Shown: in pieces, positions 3,554 through 60,297 of the stretch
How positions within the stretch are numbered: the first letter of the stretch is position 1
How the letters are laid out: each line of letters begins with the position of its first letter
From: Nitrospinaceae bacterium
GTDB taxonomy: Bacteria; Nitrospinota; Nitrospinia; Nitrospinales; JACRGP01
Direction: 5' to 3'
DNA: 64,000 bases
Assembly (NCBI GenBank): GCA_029261575.1
Contig: JAJDBD010000085.1
Coordinates: 388 to 64,387 of the forward strand
The notes under the pieces: model-generated
What the model saw: only the letters and a program-made list of their open reading frames with translations
Databases searched by the model: none
Told to the model about the DNA's origin: nothing
Program-made: the position numbers and the translations under genes

Positions 3554-6500
3554 TGCCGCGACGAACCGATATAAAAAAAATATTATTGATAGGGTCCGGT
3601 CCCATTGTCATTGGCCAGGCTTGCGAGTTCGACTATTCCGGAACCCAGGCCTGCAAAGCGCTGATGGAGGAAGGTTACGAGGTGATACTGGTCAACAGCA
3701 ATCCGGCGACCATTATGACCGATTCTGATTTTGCGACCAAAACTTACATCGAGCCGGTGACGCCTGAAATGGTGGAGTTGATAATCGCCAAAGACCGACC
3801 CGACGTTTTGTTGCCCACCATGGGCGGCCAAACCGCCTTGAACACCGCTATTGCTCTGGCGAAATCCGGGGTTTTAGAGAAATACAACGTGGAATTGATC
3901 GGCGCGGATATCGCCGCCATTAATAAAGCTGAGGATCGGAAGCTGTTCAAGGAAGCCATGTTGCATATCGGCATGAAGGTGGCTCCCAGCGGCTACGCGC
4001 ATTCGACAGAAGAGGCCGTGGAGATTGTGCGGGAAACCGGGTACCCGGCCATCATTCGACCCTCGTTTACTCTGGGCGGCGTCGGCGGAGGAATCGCCCA
4101 CACAGAGGAGCAATTGATCCACCTGACGGAATGGGGATTGAAAGCCAGCCCCTCTGCCGAAGTCCTGATTGAAAAATCCCTGTTGGGTTGGAAAGAATAC
4201 GAACTCGAAGTGATGCGGGACCGTAAAGACAACGTGGTGATCGTTTGTTCGATCGAAAATTTCGACCCGATGGGCGTCCACACTGGCGACAGCATCACCG
4301 TGGCGCCCGCGCAAACGTTGACCGACAAGGAATATCAGATATTGCGCGACGCTTCTTTGGATATTATCCGGGAAATCGGCGTGGAGACCGGGGGATCAAA
4401 TATACAGTTTGCGGTGAATCCCGAAAACGGCGAACTCCTCGTCATTGAAATGAACCCGCGAGTGTCGCGCAGTTCCGCGCTGGCTTCCAAGGCGACCGGC
4501 TTCCCCATCGCTAAAATCGCGGCCAAACTGGCCGTCGGTTACACGCTGGACGAAATCCAGAACGATATTACCCGCGTCACTCCGGCGTCGTTTGAACCCA
4601 CCATTGATTATTGCGTTGTGAAAATTCCCAGATTCACTTTTGAAAAATTTTCCAAAACTTCCGGCATTCTTTCCACCCAGATGAAGTCGGTCGGCGAAGT
4701 CATGGCCATTGGAAGAACGTTCAAGGAATCTTTGCAAAAAGCCCTGCGCTCTTTGGAAATCGGCGTGAGCGGACTGGATGAACATTTTAAATACGACATT
4801 GAAGATTCCACTCACGACCGGGACGCCCAGAAAGAGAAAATCCGCAGTCTCCTTAAAGAACCCTATTGGGAAAGAATATGGATGGTGGCCGCAGGATTGC
4901 GCCGGGGGCTTTCCATTGACGAGGTCAACAAAATAACGGGGATCGACCTTTGGTTTCTGCAAAACCTCAAAGAAATCGTGGACTTTGAAGTCGTCATTCA
5001 GGGAAAGGGAGATTTTAAAAATCTGGATAGCGACCTTTTGCGAAAGGCCAAGCAAATGGGATTTTCAGACAAATATCTCGCCGGCCTTTTAAACTGCCAG
5101 GAAGCGAACGTTGCCGAGACAAGGGAAAAATTCAATATCCGACCGGTCTTCAAGCGCGTCGACACCTGTGGCGCAGAATTCGAAGCGTACACGCCTTATT
5201 TATATTCCACCTACGAAGAGGAATGCGAGGCCAATCCGACCCGGAAAAAGAAAATCATGATCCTGGGCGGCGGACCCAATCGAATCGGCCAGGGGATTGA
5301 ATTTGATTATTGTTGCGTCCATGCCGCCTTCGCCTTGAAGGAGGACGATTTCGAAACCATCATGGTGAATTGCAATCCGGAAACCGTGAGCACGGATTAC
5401 GACACCTCCGACCGTCTGTACTTCGAGCCTTTGACGTTTGAGGACGTCATGGCCATTGTGAACATTGAAAAACCCGACGGGGTGATCGTTCAGTTCGGCG
5501 GGCAGACGCCGCTGAAGCTGGCGTTGTCGCTGGAAAAAGCGGGGGTCCCCATAATTGGAACCAGTCCTGAAAACATCGACCGCGCGGAGGACCGCAAACG
5601 GTTTAAAGAAGTTTTGGAAAAACTGGATTTAAAACAATCCCTGAGCGGCACGGCAACTTCCCAGCAGGAGGCCGAAAAAATTGCCTTGGAAATTGGATTT
5701 CCCGTATTGGTTCGTCCTTCGTATGTTTTGGGCGGGCGATCTATGGAAATCGTTTATAACCTCGAAAACCTCAGGCGTTATATGAAAACCGCTTTAAAAA
5801 TGTCTCCCGATCACCCCATCCTTATCGACCAGTTCTTGCAGGACGCCGTTGAGTTGGACGTCGATGCCTTGTCGGATGGAGAAACGGTGGTGATCGCCGG
5901 GGTGATGGAGCACATCGAGGAGGCCGGCGTGCATTCCGGAGACAGCGCTTGTTCACTGCCGCCTTTTTCCGTCGACCAGGATTGCATCCGGCAAATCAAA
6001 ATTCAGACGGCGGCTCTGGCCAGGGAGCTTGGAGTGGTGGGATTGATCAATATTCAATTCGCCGTCAAAAGCGGAGAAGTCTATATCATAGAGGTGAACC
6101 CGAGAGCCTCCCGCACCGTGCCCTTTGTCAGTAAAACCATAGGAGCGCCGCTGGCTAAAATTGCCGCTAGGGTGATGGCGGGCAAAACCTTAAAGGAACT
6201 GGGCTTCACCGAGGAAATAACTTTTGATCACATTTCCGTTAAGGAATCGGTTTTCCCTTTCATCAAGTTTTCCGAGGTCGATATTTTATTGGGTCCGGAA
6301 ATGAAATCGACCGGAGAGGTGATGGGAATCGATTCCAGCTTTGGACGCGCGTTTGCAAAATCACAGTTGGCCACGGGCGTGGAACTTTCGCCCAGCGGCA
6401 CGGTGTTCATAAGCGTTAAGGATAAAGACAAGCCGGGTTCGATAAAATTGGCGGAAGGTTTTCGCGATCTTGGTTATCAGTTGACAGCCACTTCAGGAAC

Positions 6501-6795
6501 GGCCAAATATTTAACCGAGGCGGGATTCGAGATTCGGAGGGTCAACAAGGTAAAGGAAGGTTCGCCGCATATCGTGGATTCCATCAACGCGGGCGAGATT
6601 CAATTTGTGGTCAACACGACGTTTGGCGAGCAGGCGATCCGGGATTCTTTTTCCCTGCGGCGGACGTCCCTGAGCTGCAACCTCCCCTATTGCACGACCA
6701 TGCCCGGAGCTTCGGCTTTGCTGGACGGTTTGCGGGCTATAAAGGAGAAAGGCCTCGGGGTGACGTCGCTTCAGGAATTTGGCGCGTCGATGTAA
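3553..6795 (+). CDS. carB: carbamoyl-phosphate synthase large subunit
   Basis: [17 protein letters not shown]; duplicated ATP-grasp halves ([19 protein letters not shown]); C-terminal MGS domain. Confidence 0.98.
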
Positions 6796-6798
6796 TAA

Positions 6799-7764
6799 TT
6801 ATTTTCCCAGCGCCAGGGCGCCGTAAAAGTCCCACCAGGGGGCGGCGGCTCGTTTTCCAGAACTGAGCGTTCCAGAGTTGCGAATATAGTTGTTCCATTT
6901 CAGCCGGGCAAGATTCCCGGGTTCAAATTTGTCGCCCGCTAAAATATAACCTTCAGAGACATTTTCAAATACCTGCTTGATTTTAACGGTTCCCAAAGGA
7001 ATTTGTATTTCGCCCAGGCGTTCGCCCGACCAGGGGTCTTTCATTTTCGAATCGATCTCATAAATTCTGAAGACGTCCAGGAGACCGATTCCATCGTCCC
7101 GTCCGGCGTTTATTAAAATTTTGTTTTTTTCCATATCGACGGACAACACGCGGGCTTCGAAGGTGATTTGATCGGCTAGCGGCTGGATCAAGGTCAAGGT
7201 TTTCCGGGCAACCTCGGCCATGGCCTTGCCGATGGAGGTTTTCATTATGCCTGCCTCGCCTCCGGCGGACGCATTGAACGGAAGGGTTCCGTCGGAATTC
7301 ACAGTTTCCAGGGATTCGCGGGAAATAAGCCCTCCGGTACGGGAATCAAAAATTTCCAACTCAATTTTAAATTCGGCTTTTTCGGCAAACGCTTCTTGCG
7401 CCTGGTTTTTTTGGTTTGATCCAACGACATTGGGGATAAATTTCAAAATTCTTCCCTTGATCGCCGCCTGACCGGGATATTTTGGAATCATGGGATCGTT
7501 TTCAGAAGTTGGTTTGACGGCGATTTTATCGTAACGGACGACCTGGTAATTTGGGAAACTTTTTAATTCGTCCTGAATCAAACGGGGAAATATACTCCCT
7601 AACTCAAGAGTTCCCTTGTAAGCGGAGTCGTTTACAAAAGGCTCGACTGCGAGTTTTATTTTTAAACCCGCCTGCGCCAAACCCTCGGTCGCCAATAATC
7701 CGCCCAAAAGGCAGATCAAAACGAAAATTTTTTTTCTCAACGCTTTTTTCATAGCCCGATTCAA
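6799..7764 (-). CDS. exported CsgG/FlgT-like protein (FlgT C-terminal-like domain)
   Basis: signal peptide; C-terminal ILINAGRDDGI...DPWSGERLG pattern typical of FlgT_C. Confidence 0.6.
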   Translation of the reverse strand: MNRAMKKALRKKIFVLICLLGGLLATEGLAQAGLKIKLAVEPFVNDSAYKGTLELGSIFPRLIQDELKSFPNYQVVRYDKIAVKPTSENDPMIPKYPGQAAIKGRILKFIPNVVGSNQKNQAQEAFAEKAEFKIELEIFDSRTGGLISRESLETVNSDGTLPFNASAGGEAGIMKTSIGKAMAEVARKTLTLIQPLADQITFEARVLSVDMEKNKILINAGRDDGIGLLDVFRIYEIDSKMKDPWSGERLGEIQIPLGTVKIKQVFENVSEGYILAGDKFEPGNLARLKWNNYIRNSGTLSSGKRAAAPWWDFYGALALGK

Positions 7765-35488: not shown

Positions 35489-35517
35489 TTGACTTTTTAA
35501 CATCAAAACAGTATTAT
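35489..35517 (+). promoter_or_regulatory. sigma70 promoter of the iron-uptake operon
   Basis: TTGACT-17 nt-TATTAT. Confidence 0.75.
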
Positions 35518-35537
35518 TGATAACAATTCTCATTATT
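35518..35537. promoter_or_regulatory. Fur box
   Basis: TGATAAC-A-ATTCTCA matches the 7-1-7 consensus at 12/14; GATAACAATTCTCATTATT matches the 19-mer at 14/19; lies right after the -10. Confidence 0.8.
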
Positions 35538-35617
35538 AAAAAATCAGTTCAAGCTGTTTTAATAGCAATTTTAATCCGGCTTTGGCCTTTCCTTTCAACT
35601 ATTTTGCAAGTGGATAT

Positions 35618-37723
35618 ATGAAACAAATTATCTTTCTCCTTTGGACCTTTTTGATACTATCCGGAACAAATTCTCCCGCCTTCGCAAAAAGCCAATCCAC
35701 CGAAACGACCGTCAAAAAAATCGTGATGATGCTGGATATTGTCGTCAAAGAGTACAAAGAAGGCATTTCCGAAGGAAAAATAATAAATGAAGCCGAATAC
35801 GAAGAAAGCCGATTGTTTTTAGAGCAAGCCCAGGAAAGATTCGGGCGGGTCTCCGAGAGCCTGGATAAATCCTCGGAGCCGGTCAAACAAAAGTTTTCCG
35901 AAGTCGAGGTCAAAATAAAATCAAAAACCAACCCCGACCAGATTCAAATAGACGTCGAGCAAATCCAGTCGGAAATTTTAAATTTGTTTGGAGTGAAAAT
36001 CGAATACGCTCCCAGGGAACCGGTTTCACTGGACCAAGGCAAATTAATTTACGAATCCAATTGCAAGGTCTGCCATGGCTTGACCGGAAAGGGCGATGGA
36101 CCCATTGCGTCTCAACTGGACCCGCGGCCCGCGATTTTGGCCAACCCTGCAATCACCGGCGACGCGGAGACAACCGCCTACGATAATTTTAAGATCATCA
36201 ATGTTGGCATTGCCGGAACGGGAATGACCGACTGGTCGAAAGTCCTGTCGGAAACCGACATTTGGAATGTTTCCTATTACATCCGTACTTTTTCCAACGA
36301 GAACGTGAAACTGCCGTCCGTTTCCGCCCTGGGCGGCGACCCGGACAAAGAATATCAAGCCATATTGACCGAGGTAGAAAACGTTCTGGATCGCAGCCTG
36401 GAATCCTTTAAAAATTCCCAAATCCAGGACGCGGGGGAACAGGCTTCCGACTCTTACCTGGTTTACGAAAAGGTGGAACGGAATCTGTTGACTAAGCGAA
36501 AGGAACTGGCCCTGCGACTGGAATCGGCATTCGGCAGGTACCAGGGAGAGATCAAACGAAAGGCGTCGCTGGAACAGGTTCAGGGAATATACCAAAACAT
36601 TAAAAACGACCTGGAACTTGCCCGCGAGGCCCTGGATAAAAACGTCGGTTTTTCCGGACTGTTCATTCAATCGCTTTCCATTATCGTCCGCGAGGGTTTC
36701 GAAGCCATATTGGTGATCGCCGCCCTAATCACTTTTCTGGTCAAATCCCGAAACAAAGACAAGACCAAATCAATTTGGATCGGGATGGGGCTTGGAATAT
36801 TTGCCAGTTTTATCACCGCATACATTCTTCAAGAAATCCTTGAGGTGTCCTCCGAAAACAAGGAAGTGATGGAAGGCTGGATCATGTTGATTTCCGTGGC
36901 AGTCCTTTTTTGGGTCAGCTACTGGTTGATTTCAAAAATCCAGACCCACCGATGGCAAAGCTATATCACGAGCAAAATGCAGGAAGTCGTTTCCACTGGA
37001 AGCGCGTATACCCTGGGGCTGGTGGCGTTTCTTTCCGTTTACCGCGAAGGATTCGAGACCGTGCTTTTTTACAAAGCGCTCTATACCTATTCCGGAACCG
37101 AGACCGGCGGCATCCTTCCCGGATTTTTTGCGGGATGCGTTATCCTGATCGTGGTTTTTTACGCCATCAACAAACTGGGGTTGAGAATTCCCGTAAAATG
37201 GTTCTTCACCGTCACCAGCATTTTTCTCTATTACATGGCCTTCACCTTCATGGGCAAAGGCTTGCACGAGTTGCAAATGGGCCAATTATTGGTCATGACT
37301 CCGGTTCCGTGGGCGCCAGAGGCGCACTGGTTGGGCATGTACCCCACCCTGGAAACCTTTGCGGGTCAGTTTGTTCTGATCGCCGCCTTTGTCTTCGCCC
37401 TGATTTATACCTTTATCATCAAATCGCAAATAAAAACTCAGGAAATTAAAAACGAAACCCGTAGTTTATTTTCGGGTATTTCTGCGGTTCACGACCTGGT
37501 CAATCACATATCAAACCATACCAAGCGATGCGAATTATTCCTAAAGGATACCCAGGACCAGGACTTGAAAGAACTGGCCATTCATCTTGGAGAAATCCAC
37601 GACAAGGTCCATGAGCTTTCCGATCACGTTCGTTATGTGGAAAGCCAATTGATGGATGAATACGACGAACTGGATCTTGCTATATCCCAGGATTCCGCCA
37701 AGGAGGCCAAGGAATTGCCTTGA
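35618..37723 (+). CDS. cytochrome c / FTR1 family iron permease with extra His-rich C-terminal domain
   Basis: signal peptide; CKVCH heme motif; two REGFE motifs; about 7 TM helices. Confidence 0.92.
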
Positions 37724-39297
37724 AGGTCCGTTCCTCAAAACAATCCAGAATATGGCACAAGTGGACGGGATTGGTATCGAGTATTTTTGTGTTTATATTG
37801 TGCGTTTCCGGCATTCCCCTCATGCATTACGAGGAATGGAATCTTGCCGACGTCCGCGTTTCCAGCCGCTACCTTCCTAAAAAATATTTTCAGGTCAAGG
37901 GACAAAATCCAACCATCCAGGCCCTGGCCGTTTCCCCTTCCAATCCTTCCCTCCTGTTCGCCGGAGCCAACCACGGTTTGTTCAAATCCATGGACGGCGG
38001 GCAAACCTGGGAACCCAAAAACGAAGGACTTTTTAATCTCGACGTTCATTCCATAACTCTCGATCCGGCGCGTGCCGGCGTCGTCTATCTGGGAACGGGA
38101 AAGGGGATTTTCAAGTCGGAGAACGACGGGGAAAACTGGACGCAATGGTTCGAAGAGTCTACGGGACTTCCCGGAGGGAGAGTCAATCACATTTTATTGG
38201 ACCCACGCGACCCGGATACTTTATACGCCTCCACGTCCGACGGTTTTTATCTGTCCGACGACAGTGGAGAGTTCTGGGTGCAAAAGTCTGCTGGCGACTT
38301 GCCTGGAAATGGCCTGGACGTTCGAGCGGCGCGGTTTTTATTTCCCGACAAAAATGATCTGTTCATTGGTACGGACGCCGGCGCTTTTCGTCGCGAGGAT
38401 GGAGGCGATTCCTGGGAAAGAAAATGGACCGAGGGGCCGGAAAGGATTCTGGATTTTATATCGACCGGCGCCGATTCCGAATTTTTTTATGTCGGAACGG
38501 AGAATGGATTTTATAAATCCTTCAATAAAGGGGTTCACTGGATTCAGGATAAAACCTTTGAGGACCTTGCCGTTTCGCAAGTCTATTTGGATCCTCTCAA
38601 CCCTTCGGCTTTATACCTGGTCGCGGGGGGTGGGATTTATTTCAGCGCCGACGGCGGCGACCGCTGGCAAACAAGTTTCCCGGACCGCGACACAATCAAG
38701 GGCGACTTCACCCCGTCTCCGGATTTGACCGCGACGAAATTCCTCATCACTGCCGGCCCAAAACCTGTATGGTTTTTGGGATCCACAGGCGGGTTACTGC
38801 TTTCTTACGATCAGGGCGCGACCTGGATTCCGAAGCGCCTGGAAGTTGCGGGTAACAAAAACGGCGAACCGGAAAAGACCATGGATATGGTCAAACTGTT
38901 CACCGAGATTCATACCGGCAGGATATTCGGCTCTTATGCTTATCTGCTCGTCGACGTCGCCACCCTGGGATTGATTTTTTTAATTTTTACCGGAATAAAA
39001 ATCAGCTTTCATAGAAGGCAGGCAGCCCAGAAAATCCAGAAAAAACTTTTGGAGGCGCAAGACGAAGAGGATGCGGTGGACGCGCTAATAAACGTTCAGG
39101 AAACCGCTTACGATCTCTCCAGGGAAAGCAGTCAAATCCACGACATGATCGAACAGATCGAAGATCATTTAGGGAAATGTAAAAACGTTTATATGAAAAA
39201 GGAAAAGAAGGAAATTGAGGAAGTCGATCGCCACGTCCATATTCTGGACGCCAAGATACAGGGGCTTATGAGCCGATTGAAAGAACTTGGGGAATGA
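37720..39297 (+). CDS. PepSY-associated-TM protein with periplasmic Asp-box beta-propeller
   Basis: WHKWTGL..SGIPLMH and [14 protein letters not shown] helices; seven S-x-D/N-x-G-x-x-W-like repeats; TTGA overlap with upstream stop. Confidence 0.85.
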
Positions 39298-39318
39298 TCA
39301 ACTTGTTAACAAGTTGAT
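39297..39318. repeat. perfect 22 bp palindrome
   Basis: ATCAACTTGTTAACAAGTTGAT equals its own reverse complement; lies between convergent stops. Confidence 0.9.
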
Positions 39319-39327
39319 AAGCGCGAA

Positions 39328-39585
39328 TCAATTGATGAGATTTTCTCCGTTCTTGAAATCCCTTTGAGAATACTCCCGCGGCAATTCCAATTTTTTAAAT
39401 TCCTCCCAGTCGTCCCGAAACAGGTTGAATCCCACAAAATCCAGGGCCTGCATCAATTCCAGATCGGTGAGCCGTTCCCCCTCTTCCGCCGCTTCGCGTA
39501 AGACTTCTTCTAAAGACTCGCAAATTACGGCGAAGCGTTCGTCGTCCATTGAAACCATCAGGTTTTTCATAAAATCAAAGGACAT
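39328..39585 (-). CDS. small acidic hypothetical protein
   Basis: 85 aa ORF with AGGAGG RBS, downstream of the aldolase genes. Confidence 0.75.
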   Translation of the reverse strand: MSFDFMKNLMVSMDDERFAVICESLEEVLREAAEEGERLTDLELMQALDFVGFNLFRDDWEEFKKLELPREYSQRDFKNGENLIN

Positions 39586-43622: not shown

Positions 43623-45290
43623 ATGGATATGAACGATTCACCCCGAAAACCTGACCGAATCGAAAAAGTCGACGCTAAATTAGCGCATGACGACCGGTTG
43701 AATTCCCTTCTCGTGGGCGTTGTCAACGAGGTAAAAGCCTACGCCGACCAATTGATGGGTCAGCTCCAGCAACTGTCGGATATTGGGAGAGGCCTTTCCG
43801 GGGAATATGAGCTGGATTCGCTTCTCGAAAAAATTCTGGTGCAGGCTTGCGAATTTGCTTCGGCGGACGCGGGGACCTTATACATTCTTGAAGACAATGT
43901 TTTAAAATTTGAAATTGTTCAAAACAAAAGCTTGAACATACGCATGGGAGGAAAAACCGGGGAACCTATAACATTTGATCCGGTCGAATTGAAGGAATCC
44001 AATGTTTCCGCCTTCGTCGCCCTGAATGGAATTCCGGTAAATATTCAGGACGTGTACGACACGGACCTGTTCGACTTTACCGGTCCCAAAAAATTCGACG
44101 AATCCACGGGCTACCGCTCCAAGTCCATGTTGGTGATTCCCATGCGCAATCACGAAAGCGACGTGATAGGCGTTCTTCAATTAATGAACGCCATCAACCC
44201 GAAGACCGGGGAGGTGGTGCCTTTCTCTCCGGATTTTGAAAATCTGACAGAGTCCCTGGCGTCCCAGGCCGCCATCGCCATCACCAACGCAAAACTGATC
44301 AACGACATGGAAAGCCTGTTTGAATCTTTCGTCAAGGTGATGGCGACCGCTATCGACGAAAAGTCTCCGATCACCGGGGGGCACATACGCCGCGTGGCCA
44401 ACCTCACCCTGACCATGGCTCATGTGATAAACGAGCAAAAGGAAGGGAGTTTTAAAGAGGTTCATTTTTCCAAGGAGAAACTGCACGAGTTGCGCATTGC
44501 GGCCTGGATGCACGATATCGGGAAAGTCACCACCCCCGTGGAAATCATCGAAAAGGCCAAGAAGCTTCAAACCATATTTGACCGGATCGAATTCATCGAC
44601 CTTCGACTGCAATTTTTGATACAAAACGCGCGACTGGAAGCGCTGGAAAAAAGGCAGGTTCTGATCGAAAAAGGCGCGCCCATCGAAGAAATGGAAAAGC
44701 TAGAGCGGGAAATGCAAGCCCGGCAGGAAGAATTAAAGGACGTCCGCAAATTCATCCACTACTGCAATCAACCCAGCGAGTTTCTGGCGGATGAAGCGGT
44801 GGAACGTTTACAGGAAATCGCCAAAAAAATCTACACGGATATCGACGGAAACGCCTGCAACTTTTTGCAGGAGGACGAGGTTAAAAATCTTTCCATACGC
44901 AAAGGCAGCATCACGGAAGAGGAAAGAAAAATCATGCAGAACCACGCTTCCATTACTCTCCGGATGTTGAACCAAATCCCCTTCACCAAAAGACTGAAAA
45001 ACATTCCCAGCTTCGCCGGGGCGCATCATGAATGCATCAATGGAAAGGGATATCCTCTGGGACTGAAGGACGACGAAATACCGTTTGAGGGGAAATTGAT
45101 GGCGGTGACGGACATTGCGGAGGCCTTGACGGCTTCGGACCGGCCCTACAAAAAAGCCATGCCCCTGGACAACGTCTACAGAATTTTAACAACGATGGCA
45201 AATAATAACGAATTGGACGCCGACATGGTGAGTTTGTTCATCAAGCAAAACGTATACGACCGTTACCTGGAGGAACACGAAGATAAATAA
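43623..45290 (+). CDS. GAF + HD-GYP cyclic dinucleotide phosphodiesterase
   Basis: GAF (YRSKSMLVIPM..GVLQLMN), HDIGK, HHECINGKGYP, DRPYK. Confidence 0.92.
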   Translation: MDMNDSPRKPDRIEKVDAKLAHDDRLNSLLVGVVNEVKAYADQLMGQLQQLSDIGRGLSGEYELDSLLEKILVQACEFASADAGTLYILEDNVLKFEIVQNKSLNIRMGGKTGEPITFDPVELKESNVSAFVALNGIPVNIQDVYDTDLFDFTGPKKFDESTGYRSKSMLVIPMRNHESDVIGVLQLMNAINPKTGEVVPFSPDFENLTESLASQAAIAITNAKLINDMESLFESFVKVMATAIDEKSPITGGHIRRVANLTLTMAHVINEQKEGSFKEVHFSKEKLHELRIAAWMHDIGKVTTPVEIIEKAKKLQTIFDRIEFIDLRLQFLIQNARLEALEKRQVLIEKGAPIEEMEKLEREMQARQEELKDVRKFIHYCNQPSEFLADEAVERLQEIAKKIYTDIDGNACNFLQEDEVKNLSIRKGSITEEERKIMQNHASITLRMLNQIPFTKRLKNIPSFAGAHHECINGKGYPLGLKDDEIPFEGKLMAVTDIAEALTASDRPYKKAMPLDNVYRILTTMANNNELDADMVSLFIKQNVYDRYLEEHEDK

Positions 45291-59868: not shown

Positions 59869-60297
59869 ATGTCCAGTAAAGAACAGCAAGTCCTCGAAGA
59901 TTTTATTTCCCAAAATAATCTTAAAATCACCCGTCAAAGGCGGACAGTTCTGAGCGCTTTTTTAGGAAGCGAGGAACATGTCAGCGCCGAGGATCTGCAC
60001 CGGATCGTACGGGAAAAAGAATCCAACATCGGTTTGGCCACTGTATACCGGACCCTGAGTCTGCTGACCCAAAGCGGCCTGGCGGTCGAGCTTGATTTTG
60101 GCGACGGACAAAAGCGCTACGAACACAATTATATGCACAGCCATCACGATCATATGATCTGCACCGAATGCGGGAAGATCATCGAGTTCAACCATCCCCT
60201 GATCGAAAAATTCCAGGAAGAAGTCGCGCGGCGCAACGGCTTCACCATCACGTCCCACAAACTGGACATGTTCGGCCTTTGCGCGGATTGCAAGTAA
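59869..60297 (+). CDS. fur: Fur family transcriptional regulator
   Basis: KITRQR, HVSAEDL, ATVYRTL, HHDHMICTECG, C-terminal CADC. Confidence 0.88.
   Translation: MSSKEQQVLEDFISQNNLKITRQRRTVLSAFLGSEEHVSAEDLHRIVREKESNIGLATVYRTLSLLTQSGLAVELDFGDGQKRYEHNYMHSHHDHMICTECGKIIEFNHPLIEKFQEEVARRNGFTITSHKLDMFGLCADCK

Follow-up and report, generated by a model that had tools for sequence, protein, structure and literature searches.

A stretch of 64,000 nucleotides from a Nitrospinaceae bacterium (contig JAJDBD010000085.1; hereafter the window) contained two genes on the + strand, at 35582-37723 and 37720-39297, which overlapped by four bases, the TTG start of gene 2 lying across the TGA stop of gene 1. 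Gene 1 encodes a cytochrome c-FTR1 permease and gene 2 a PepSY_TM/beta-propeller partner, and both proteins carry at their C-termini a tail that holds one copy of the same His-rich domain, which is predicted to fold as a helical hairpin. Permeases of the FTR1/EfeU type are widespread and import iron with high affinity. The two genes and their domains were arranged as follows (aa, amino acids; TM, transmembrane; HMM, hidden Markov model).

35582-37723, + strand: gene 1, an open reading frame (ORF) of 713 aa with a signal peptide, a helical region, cytochrome c, an FTR1 permease and a 100-residue C-terminal tail.
36062-36076, + strand: CKVCH heme-binding motif of the fused periplasmic cytochrome c, residues 161-165 (motif and Pfam match).
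36689-36703, + strand: first REGFE (RExxE), in TM1, residues 370-374 (motif position).
37043-37057, + strand: second REGFE, in TM4, residues 488-492 (motif position).
37460-37654, + strand: permease copy of the His-rich hairpin domain, 65 aa, containing 37487-37618 (alignment; own-genome HMM E 2.5e-26).
37720-39297, + strand: gene 2, an ORF of 525 aa with PepSY_TM TM1, a periplasmic 370-residue BNR/Ycf48-like beta-propeller, TM2 and a 99-residue tail.
39109-39294, + strand: partner copy of the His-rich hairpin domain, 62 aa, running to the last codon and containing 39136-39267 (alignment; own-genome HMM E 9.9e-26).

Gene 1 may start at TTG 35582 (713 aa) or at ATG 35618 (MKQII..., signal-peptide-like), of which the latter is likelier. 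The Pfam family FTR1 (PF03239) matched residues 366-567 with 88.1 bits (cut-off 25.3), and the NCBIfam EfeU/Ftr1 equivalog and subfamily models matched far below their cut-offs (127 vs. 303.8 and 110 vs. 255 bits, respectively); gene 1 is therefore a divergent FTR1 member and not an EfeU equivalog. The RExxE motif, which is REGLE in yeast Ftr1, is a hallmark of FTR1. The cytochrome c region matched PF13442 (Cytochrome_CBB3; residues 150-234, 36.8 bits, cut-off 27) and PF00034 (35.0 bits, cut-off 21.3). A simple hydropathy scan of gene 1 gave five strong TM segments, with both RExxE/Gly-containing helices under the threshold, and the charge of the loops fitted an N-out/C-in topology.

In gene 2, the match to PepSY_TM (PF03929; 39.2 bits, cut-off 28.8) was confined to the first and the last TM region, and the family model is longer (295 positions). 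The propeller between them matched Sortilin-Vps10 (48.0 bits, cut-off 33) and PSII_BNR (47.1 bits, cut-off 27) and contained three Asp-box-like DGGxxW motifs, and the two TM segments were placed by hydropathy at residues 17-35 and 408-426. The initial annotation had described the pair as an FTR1 permease with a PepSY partner; both families were borne out, although the permease is actually a cytochrome c-FTR1 fusion and the partner a two-TM protein with a beta-propeller. Gene 2 also had a conserved histidine where TM1 begins on the cytoplasmic side (IWHKW, 37750-37764) and another just before TM2 (EIHTGR, 38905-38922). Such histidines are heme ligands in PepSY_TM reductases, e.g., FoxB. Since the partner has only two TM helices, heme binding would need a dimer, and the partner would then be a transmembrane electron conduit.

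The claim from which this analysis started was that the two tails align without gaps over 44 aa (37487-37618 and 39136-39267). The translations of both stretches were letter-identical to those quoted, and the ungapped alignment had 9 identities in 44 positions with the spacing HD-x7-H-x3-C-x17-H as claimed (BLOSUM62 score 57). None of 20000 plain shuffles of the window pair reached this score. It was reached by 103 of 20000 shuffles that kept the hydrophobic (heptad) pattern and, when any register was allowed, by 11 of 2000 pattern-keeping shuffles. Shuffled coiled-coil controls had been set beforehand as a test, which the window pair passed, but moderately. The sole BLASTP match between the whole proteins covered 18 aa with an E-value of 0.017, and the homology of the window pair taken alone was suggestive, not decisive. 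Orthologue profiles, built from 31 tails of the permease and 24 of the partner, gave a much clearer picture: hhalign aligned the two profiles over 61 ungapped columns with a probability of 97%, an E-value of 1.1e-10, and a score of 55. In 200 column shuffles, the scores had a mean of 11.4, a standard deviation of 3.0, and a maximum of 33.7, so that none reached 55, and a reversed profile used as a control scored 24.6. The consensus tails of the orthologues also resembled each other more than the two tails of the window do. The profile-profile score and the column shuffles show that the tails are homologous, and by these sequence comparisons both are copies of one domain of ~60 residues.

The domain is a unit of 65 aa with the motif [VI]-H-D-x-x-E-H-I-x-x-H-x-x-K-C ... 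H-x4-D-x-K-x-H-x-L, and contains nine conserved potential ligands (five His, two Asp, one Glu, and one Cys). The conserved columns of the orthologue alignments were as follows.

H11, H20, H42 and I17: permease 31/31, partner 24/24, no exceptions.
D12: permease 31/31, partner 22/24.
E15: permease 28/31, partner 24/24.
H16: permease 31/31, partner 22/24 (Q in G000 and G001).
H51: permease 31/31, partner 22/24 (Q in G000 and G001).
C24: permease 29/31 (S in G017 and G035), partner 24/24.
D47: permease 28/31 (H in G000, G001 and G003), partner 24/24.
K49: permease 30/31, partner 23/24.

The four shared positions noticed in the window (H11, H20, C24, and H42) were thus conserved in the orthologues of both proteins, and H20 and H42 were invariant across a wider set of 44 diverse copies. 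The genus of the window was the most divergent, which is why only four shared ligand positions are visible in the window pair. The opposite charge of the central loops, which had also been read from the window pair, held in the orthologues, with a mean of -1.5 (-3 to -1) in the permease and of +0.7 (-1 to +2) in the partner.

A helical hairpin had been proposed for both tails, and the AlphaFold2 (AF2) model of the window's permease copy, computed from a 44-row alignment, predicted one (helix 2-27, loop 28-33, helix 34-64), with a predicted local distance difference test (pLDDT) of 84.9 and a predicted template modeling score (pTM) of 0.61. With the loop centered at approximately 30.5 in the model summary, residue i would face approximately 61-i. 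By that register, H20 would face H42, H11/D12 would face H51/K49, E15/H16 would face D47, and C24 would lie one turn past H20. When heptad positions were assigned by hand, C24 belonged to the core and the histidines to its flanks. Both tails were predicted to be cytoplasmic by hydropathy and the positive-inside rule, as had been proposed, and for the permease this placement agrees with the seven-TM, N-out/C-in topology given for yeast Ftr1 in the consulted part of PMC11817551. A hemerythrin-like reading of the motifs HxxxE, HxxxH, and HxxxxD was rejected, as no Pfam hemerythrin match was found at E <=1 and the motifs overlap on one helix.

The tail had been taken for an add-on to FTR1 that belongs to no named family, and both points held. 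The FTR1 orthologues of genus g7 (5/5 genomes) stopped at about residue 613-620 of the query and had no match to the domain. No Pfam family matched the two 44-aa tails, no tail-covering Pfam family exceeded its cut-off in 10 diverse carriers, and all 44 aligned copies had only sub-threshold Pfam matches to coiled-coil families. NCBIfam returned nothing above cut-off over the tail in seven proteins, a PDB profile search returned only GCN4-type zippers on helix 2, and a search of the ESM Atlas with the stand-alone hairpin protein P0044 gave no match of 0.9 or higher (best 0.80). Foldseek found no match in the PDB at E <=1e-3 (all matches at E 0.33 or worse). Its top non-significant neighbors were histidine-kinase chimeras and DHp domains, Rop, WXG100 proteins (ESAT-6/CFP-10), and designed bundles. 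Hairpins such as Rop, DHp, and WXG100 dimerize into four-helix bundles. No description of the tail was found in the consulted literature on FTR1, PepSY, and Nitrospina iron; the comparative study of Nitrospinota (PMC10839748) gives its iron annotations in supplements, which may mention these genes. By these sequence and structure searches, the domain is a previously undescribed family.

The permease orthologue was present across the order. In addition to the 31 extracted tails, one tail was seen in a separate genome scan (G007, where the gene lies at a contig edge). Eight genomes had an FTR1 without the tail (five of g7, two of g12, and one with a broken gene), and no FTR1 was found in one genome that is 71% complete. 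Of 41 related genomes, 26 had the partner gene next to that of the permease. The partner gene carried a frameshift inside the tail in G015, and in G037 it consisted of two frames, one of 442 aa and one of 85 aa that encodes the tail alone; the same arrangement at L086 is probably the same record. In the complete Nitrospinaceae chromosome CP070799.1 (L084 and L120), both proteins had the tail, and ~1 Mb separated their genes. Among the related loci, 50 of 53 were labelled Nitrospin- and the other 3 Nitrospirae or Nitrospirota. In 120 Nitrospinota genomes, many of them incomplete, the domain was found in 81, of which 55 had at least two copies and 26 had one.

A profile of 39 tails was searched against 1,835,955,588 representative proteins and matched 45 of these at E <=1e-3 and 19 at E <=1e-10. 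Full copies accounted for 36 of the 45 matches, and the remaining nine were fragments or repeated coiled-coil matches to helix 2 only. Of the 36, 7 had the RExxE motif of FTR1 and 12 had the PepSY_TM motif, and the rest were fragments, stand-alone proteins, or tandem proteins. The hosts of full copies included cytochrome c-FTR1 and PepSY_TM/propeller proteins, as well as FTR1 proteins that have the tail without cytochrome c (P0033, P0034, and P0045). P0035 is an FTR1 of 1246 aa with two P19 domains (Iron_transport, PF10634) at its periplasmic N-terminus and the hairpin at its C-terminus, and in a sister lineage an FTR1 of 660 aa with a Cys-less tail adjoined P19 and Fur genes. Hairpin proteins of 73-90 aa (P0027, P0044, and P0048) stood alone. 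P0022 and P0025 are soluble proteins of ~395 aa in which two tandem hairpins precede a transglutaminase-like core (PF01841, 29.8 and 27.7 bits, respectively), and P0028 is a fragment. In a metagenome scan, this tandem/transglutaminase form was located on one AT-rich contig of 2 kb (L128), which ends at the gene and offered no informative context. In other classes of Nitrospinota (L123 at 5992-7216, L124, and L127), a PepSY_TM protein of ~215 aa that lacks the propeller had a Cys-less tail; at L123 it followed a gene that matches FMN_bind in Pfam and a gene that appeared porin-like by eye. At L126, a propeller-bearing partner adjoined a gene that appeared FMN_bind-like by eye. A family this narrow, with 45 matches in 1.84 billion representatives, merits an entry in the domain databases.

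Several observations bear on whether the tails pair. The cysteine was present in both copies at all 39 two-copy loci, and every Cys-less tail seen was the only copy in its genome or locus (G017, G035, G042, the locus L116, and the mini-partners of family f9). This pattern covers at least three lineages, within which related genomes are not independent, and is a hint from the sequences that Cys may have a role in pairing. In genus g1, ligand positions had changed in both tails together (E15N and D47H in the permease, H16Q and H51Q in the partner), which counts as one event. Furthermore, a tandem protein such as P0022 or P0025 would be the expected product if two copies of a pair-forming module became fused. 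A prediction of the tail-tail complex (alignment A2 residues 7-106 and A3 residues 1-93), run without controls, gave ipSAE values of 0.03 and 0.04 vs. a mark of 0.32, and we do not weigh it on either side.

We favor, as a rather probable reading, that the domain is a metal-binding and pair-forming cytoplasmic hairpin, which would be hetero-paired where both copies are present and homo-paired otherwise, and which would sense or receive iron on the cytoplasmic side of an uptake system under predicted Fur control. The ladder of His, Asp, Glu, and Cys would bind a metal, most likely Fe(II) and possibly Zn, with H11/E15 and H16/H20/C24 spaced at i, i+4 on helix 1 and facing H42 and D47/H51 on helix 2. 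By analogy with other isolated alpha-hairpins, two modules would pair into a four-helix bundle. In cells that have both proteins, the permease tail would probably pair with the partner tail, because their loops have opposite charges and both hairpins have the same membrane orientation; a single copy would form a homodimer. Once loaded with metal, the bundle would lie at the permease's cytoplasmic mouth and may then report cytoplasmic iron to the transporter, or may take over the incoming ion.

A fuller version of this scheme appears rather doubtful. It holds that the heterodimeric bundle has an iron site whose His and Cys are shared between the chains, and that it couples the PepSY_TM electron-transfer protein to the cytochrome c-FTR1 permease, so as to serve as an iron-sensing gate, or as a station for Fe(III) reduction and hand-off, in a new oxidase-permease-reductase uptake machine, with lone copies as homodimers. 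The initial annotation was supported in part, namely in the homology, conserved ligands, predicted hairpin, and cytoplasmic location of the tails, and its four-helix bundle, metal site, and gating of uptake are proposals.

The following findings weigh against the pair-forming, metal-binding hairpin. In five genomes that are 95-97% complete (G011, G017, G024, G029, and G035), the domain was present once, as the permease tail. Four of these had no partner gene at the locus, the conserved downstream genes directly following the permease gene, and in G029 the downstream context was different. Six more named loci with full flanks likewise had a lone permease tail, the two genes were unlinked in the complete chromosome, and distant relatives had the tail on one protein type but not on the other. 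The lone permease tails scored 90-108 bits, compared with 85-109 bits for all permease tails, and since they score as high as the paired ones they are still under selection. Pairing of permease and partner is therefore not obligatory and cannot be the only mode. Cys was not universal among the distant copies. In the genus of the window, the partner tail has Q in place of H at columns 16 and 51 and the permease tail has N15 and H47, so that the proposed sites would be incomplete in this genome unless they are shared between chains. Ligands were assigned to rungs by way of the loop position in the model summary rather than of coordinates. For the tandem protein P0022, the AF2 model (5-row alignment; helices 2-35, 38-73, 89-120, and 126-163) had a mean pLDDT of 42 and an unusable packing. 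In the PDB profile search, helix 2 matched GCN4 constructs, which are generic leucine zippers, with E-values of 1.7e-5 to 3e-4, so that coiled-coil periodicity accounts for part of the likeness of the two tails. Lastly, metal binding, pairing, and gating are inferred.

Alternatively, the tail may act within its own protein, as a cis plug or sensor on its own membrane domain or in homo-oligomers, without contact between permease and partner; the shared module would then reflect the need for the same iron signal. We regard this as possible but unlikely. It would account for the selected lone permease tails in the five genomes and at the six loci, for the lone tails on the PepSY_TM proteins of ~215 aa (family f9), with no FTR1 among the neighboring ORFs listed at L123, and for the unlinked genes of the complete chromosome. 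On the other hand, it does not predict the opposite loop charges across orthologues, the cysteines in both copies at every two-copy locus with Cys-less tails all lone, the joint change of ligand positions in g1, or the natural tandem of two copies. A second alternative, to which we give a low probability, is that the hairpin has a purely structural role, as a coiled coil or oligomerization element, or is a dock for a third cytoplasmic protein (a reductase, ferredoxin, or iron chaperone), with histidines that serve hydrogen bonding, pH sensing, or partner recognition instead of binding metal. The zipper matches of helix 2, the restriction of the sub-threshold Pfam matches to coiled-coil families, and the lack of any match to a known metal-binding family in Pfam or NCBIfam are all consistent with it. 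However, nine conserved potential ligands, several of them at i, i+4 on both helices, are atypical of a plain coiled coil, and the hosts that belong to a recognizable family are all FTR1 or PepSY_TM proteins of iron uptake. A likeness that arose by chance or convergence between unrelated amphipathic helices, for which the 18-aa BLASTP match and the 103 pattern-keeping shuffles of the window pair might be cited, is highly improbable and was refuted by the hhalign comparison with its column shuffles, by the greater likeness of the orthologue consensuses, and by a single HMM that retrieved both tails and almost nothing else among 1.84 billion proteins.

The combination of the hairpin with an FTR1 permease can be compared with several known systems. 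Bacterial FTR1 systems, including EfeUOB, FtrABCD, and P19-FTR1, share the permease core, and of the tail-bearing relatives, one has fused P19 domains and another an adjoining P19 gene. In contrast, no cupredoxin, P19, DyP-peroxidase, or polyferredoxin gene was found in the operon of the window, where these components are replaced by the cytochrome c fused to the permease and by the PepSY_TM protein. To our knowledge, it is not known how iron exits on the cytoplasmic side of bacterial FTR1 systems or how they are shut off, and a small conserved His/Cys hairpin at the cytoplasmic end of the permease and of its electron-transfer-type partner could provide an easily expressed handle on this step. 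Yeast Fet3-Ftr1 similarly combines an FTR1-family permease (seven TM, N-out, C-in) with a membrane partner that has a large extracytoplasmic domain. The yeast partner, however, is a multicopper oxidase, whereas the Nitrospinaceae partner is a PepSY_TM/beta-propeller protein; the tails of Fet3 and Ftr1 have no His/Cys hairpin and are related neither to one another nor to the hairpin domain. Rop, the DHp domain of histidine kinases, and WXG100 proteins (ESAT-6/CFP-10) also consist of two antiparallel helices of ~25-30 residues each, but the matches to them were non-significant and they lack the His/Asp/Glu/Cys ladder, indicating an analogy of fold and not membership.

The C-terminus of E. coli FeoB is another short cytoplasmic stretch of an iron importer that contains Cys and His, and it has been studied for the binding of Fe(II), Mn(II), and Zn(II) (PMC10647171). 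It belongs to a different transporter family and is an unstructured Cys-rich peptide with no sequence relation to the hairpin. PepSY_TM and PepSY-like iron-reductase systems (VciB; flavinylation clusters) resemble the partner, which matches PF03929 and whose tailed relatives adjoin an FMN_bind gene. The FMN_bind neighborhoods of these relatives resemble the flavinylation-associated PepSY-like clusters that have been tied to extracytosolic electron transfer and iron reduction, and the consulted part of the paper describes no C-terminal hairpin, beta-propeller insertion, or FTR1 pairing (PMC8238504). The acquisition of iron by Nitrospinota matters for marine nitrogen cycling; they are the main nitrite oxidizers of the iron-poor ocean according to the consulted part of PMC10839748.

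Upstream and around the two genes, the following sequence elements were located.

35489-35517, + strand: sigma-70-like promoter, TTGACT-17 nt-TATTAT (10/12 in a consensus scan; candidate by pattern match).
35518-35532, + strand: Fur-box-like 7-1-7 palindrome TGATAACAATTCTCA, directly 3' of the -10 hexamer (consensus match).
37700-37706, + strand: Shine-Dalgarno-like AAGGAGG, 13 nt before the TTG start of the partner (read from the sequence).
39298-39317, strand not assigned: perfect 20-nt palindrome TCAACTTGTTAACAAGTTGA, directly after the partner stop and between convergent genes (read from the sequence).

The site TGATAACAATTCTCA was the sole match in the 64-kb window, at up to 2 mismatches, to TGATAATNATTATCA, which we take to be the 7-1-7 consensus of the Fur box (0.17 matches expected). 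A Fur-like box preceded the orthologous permease gene at 26 of 31 loci at <=2 mismatches and at 29 of 31 at <=3 mismatches, with 7 perfect sites. The whole genome contained 20 Fur-box-like sites, vs. none with a backwards control, and two Fur genes, of which one lies within the window. A box at the putative promoter, its retention in orthologues, and a Fur gene in the genome are features of a Fur-regulated promoter, and a conserved Fur-like box thus precedes the two-gene operon, for which regulation by iron is predicted. The Fur-family gene of the window is at 59914-60270 (+ strand; PF01475, 138 bits), ~22 kb downstream of the operon, and the second Fur paralogue is on another contig (C84:8284-8640), with four Fur-box-like sites around it.

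The genes flanking the operon were not linked to iron (an M32 carboxypeptidase, an SH3/zinc-ribbon protein, a KDPG aldolase, and an HMGL-like enzyme), and the unit is therefore the two-gene operon. The palindrome TCAACTTGTTAACAAGTTGA was not listed by the terminator scan because it has no T run. An acidic ORF of 85 aa (MSFDFMK...; 39328-39585, - strand) that matched no Pfam family was conserved beside the operon, and in partner-less genomes it lay directly 3' of the permease gene. A GAF and HD-GYP-type (HD_5) signaling protein was encoded at 43623-45290 (+ strand).

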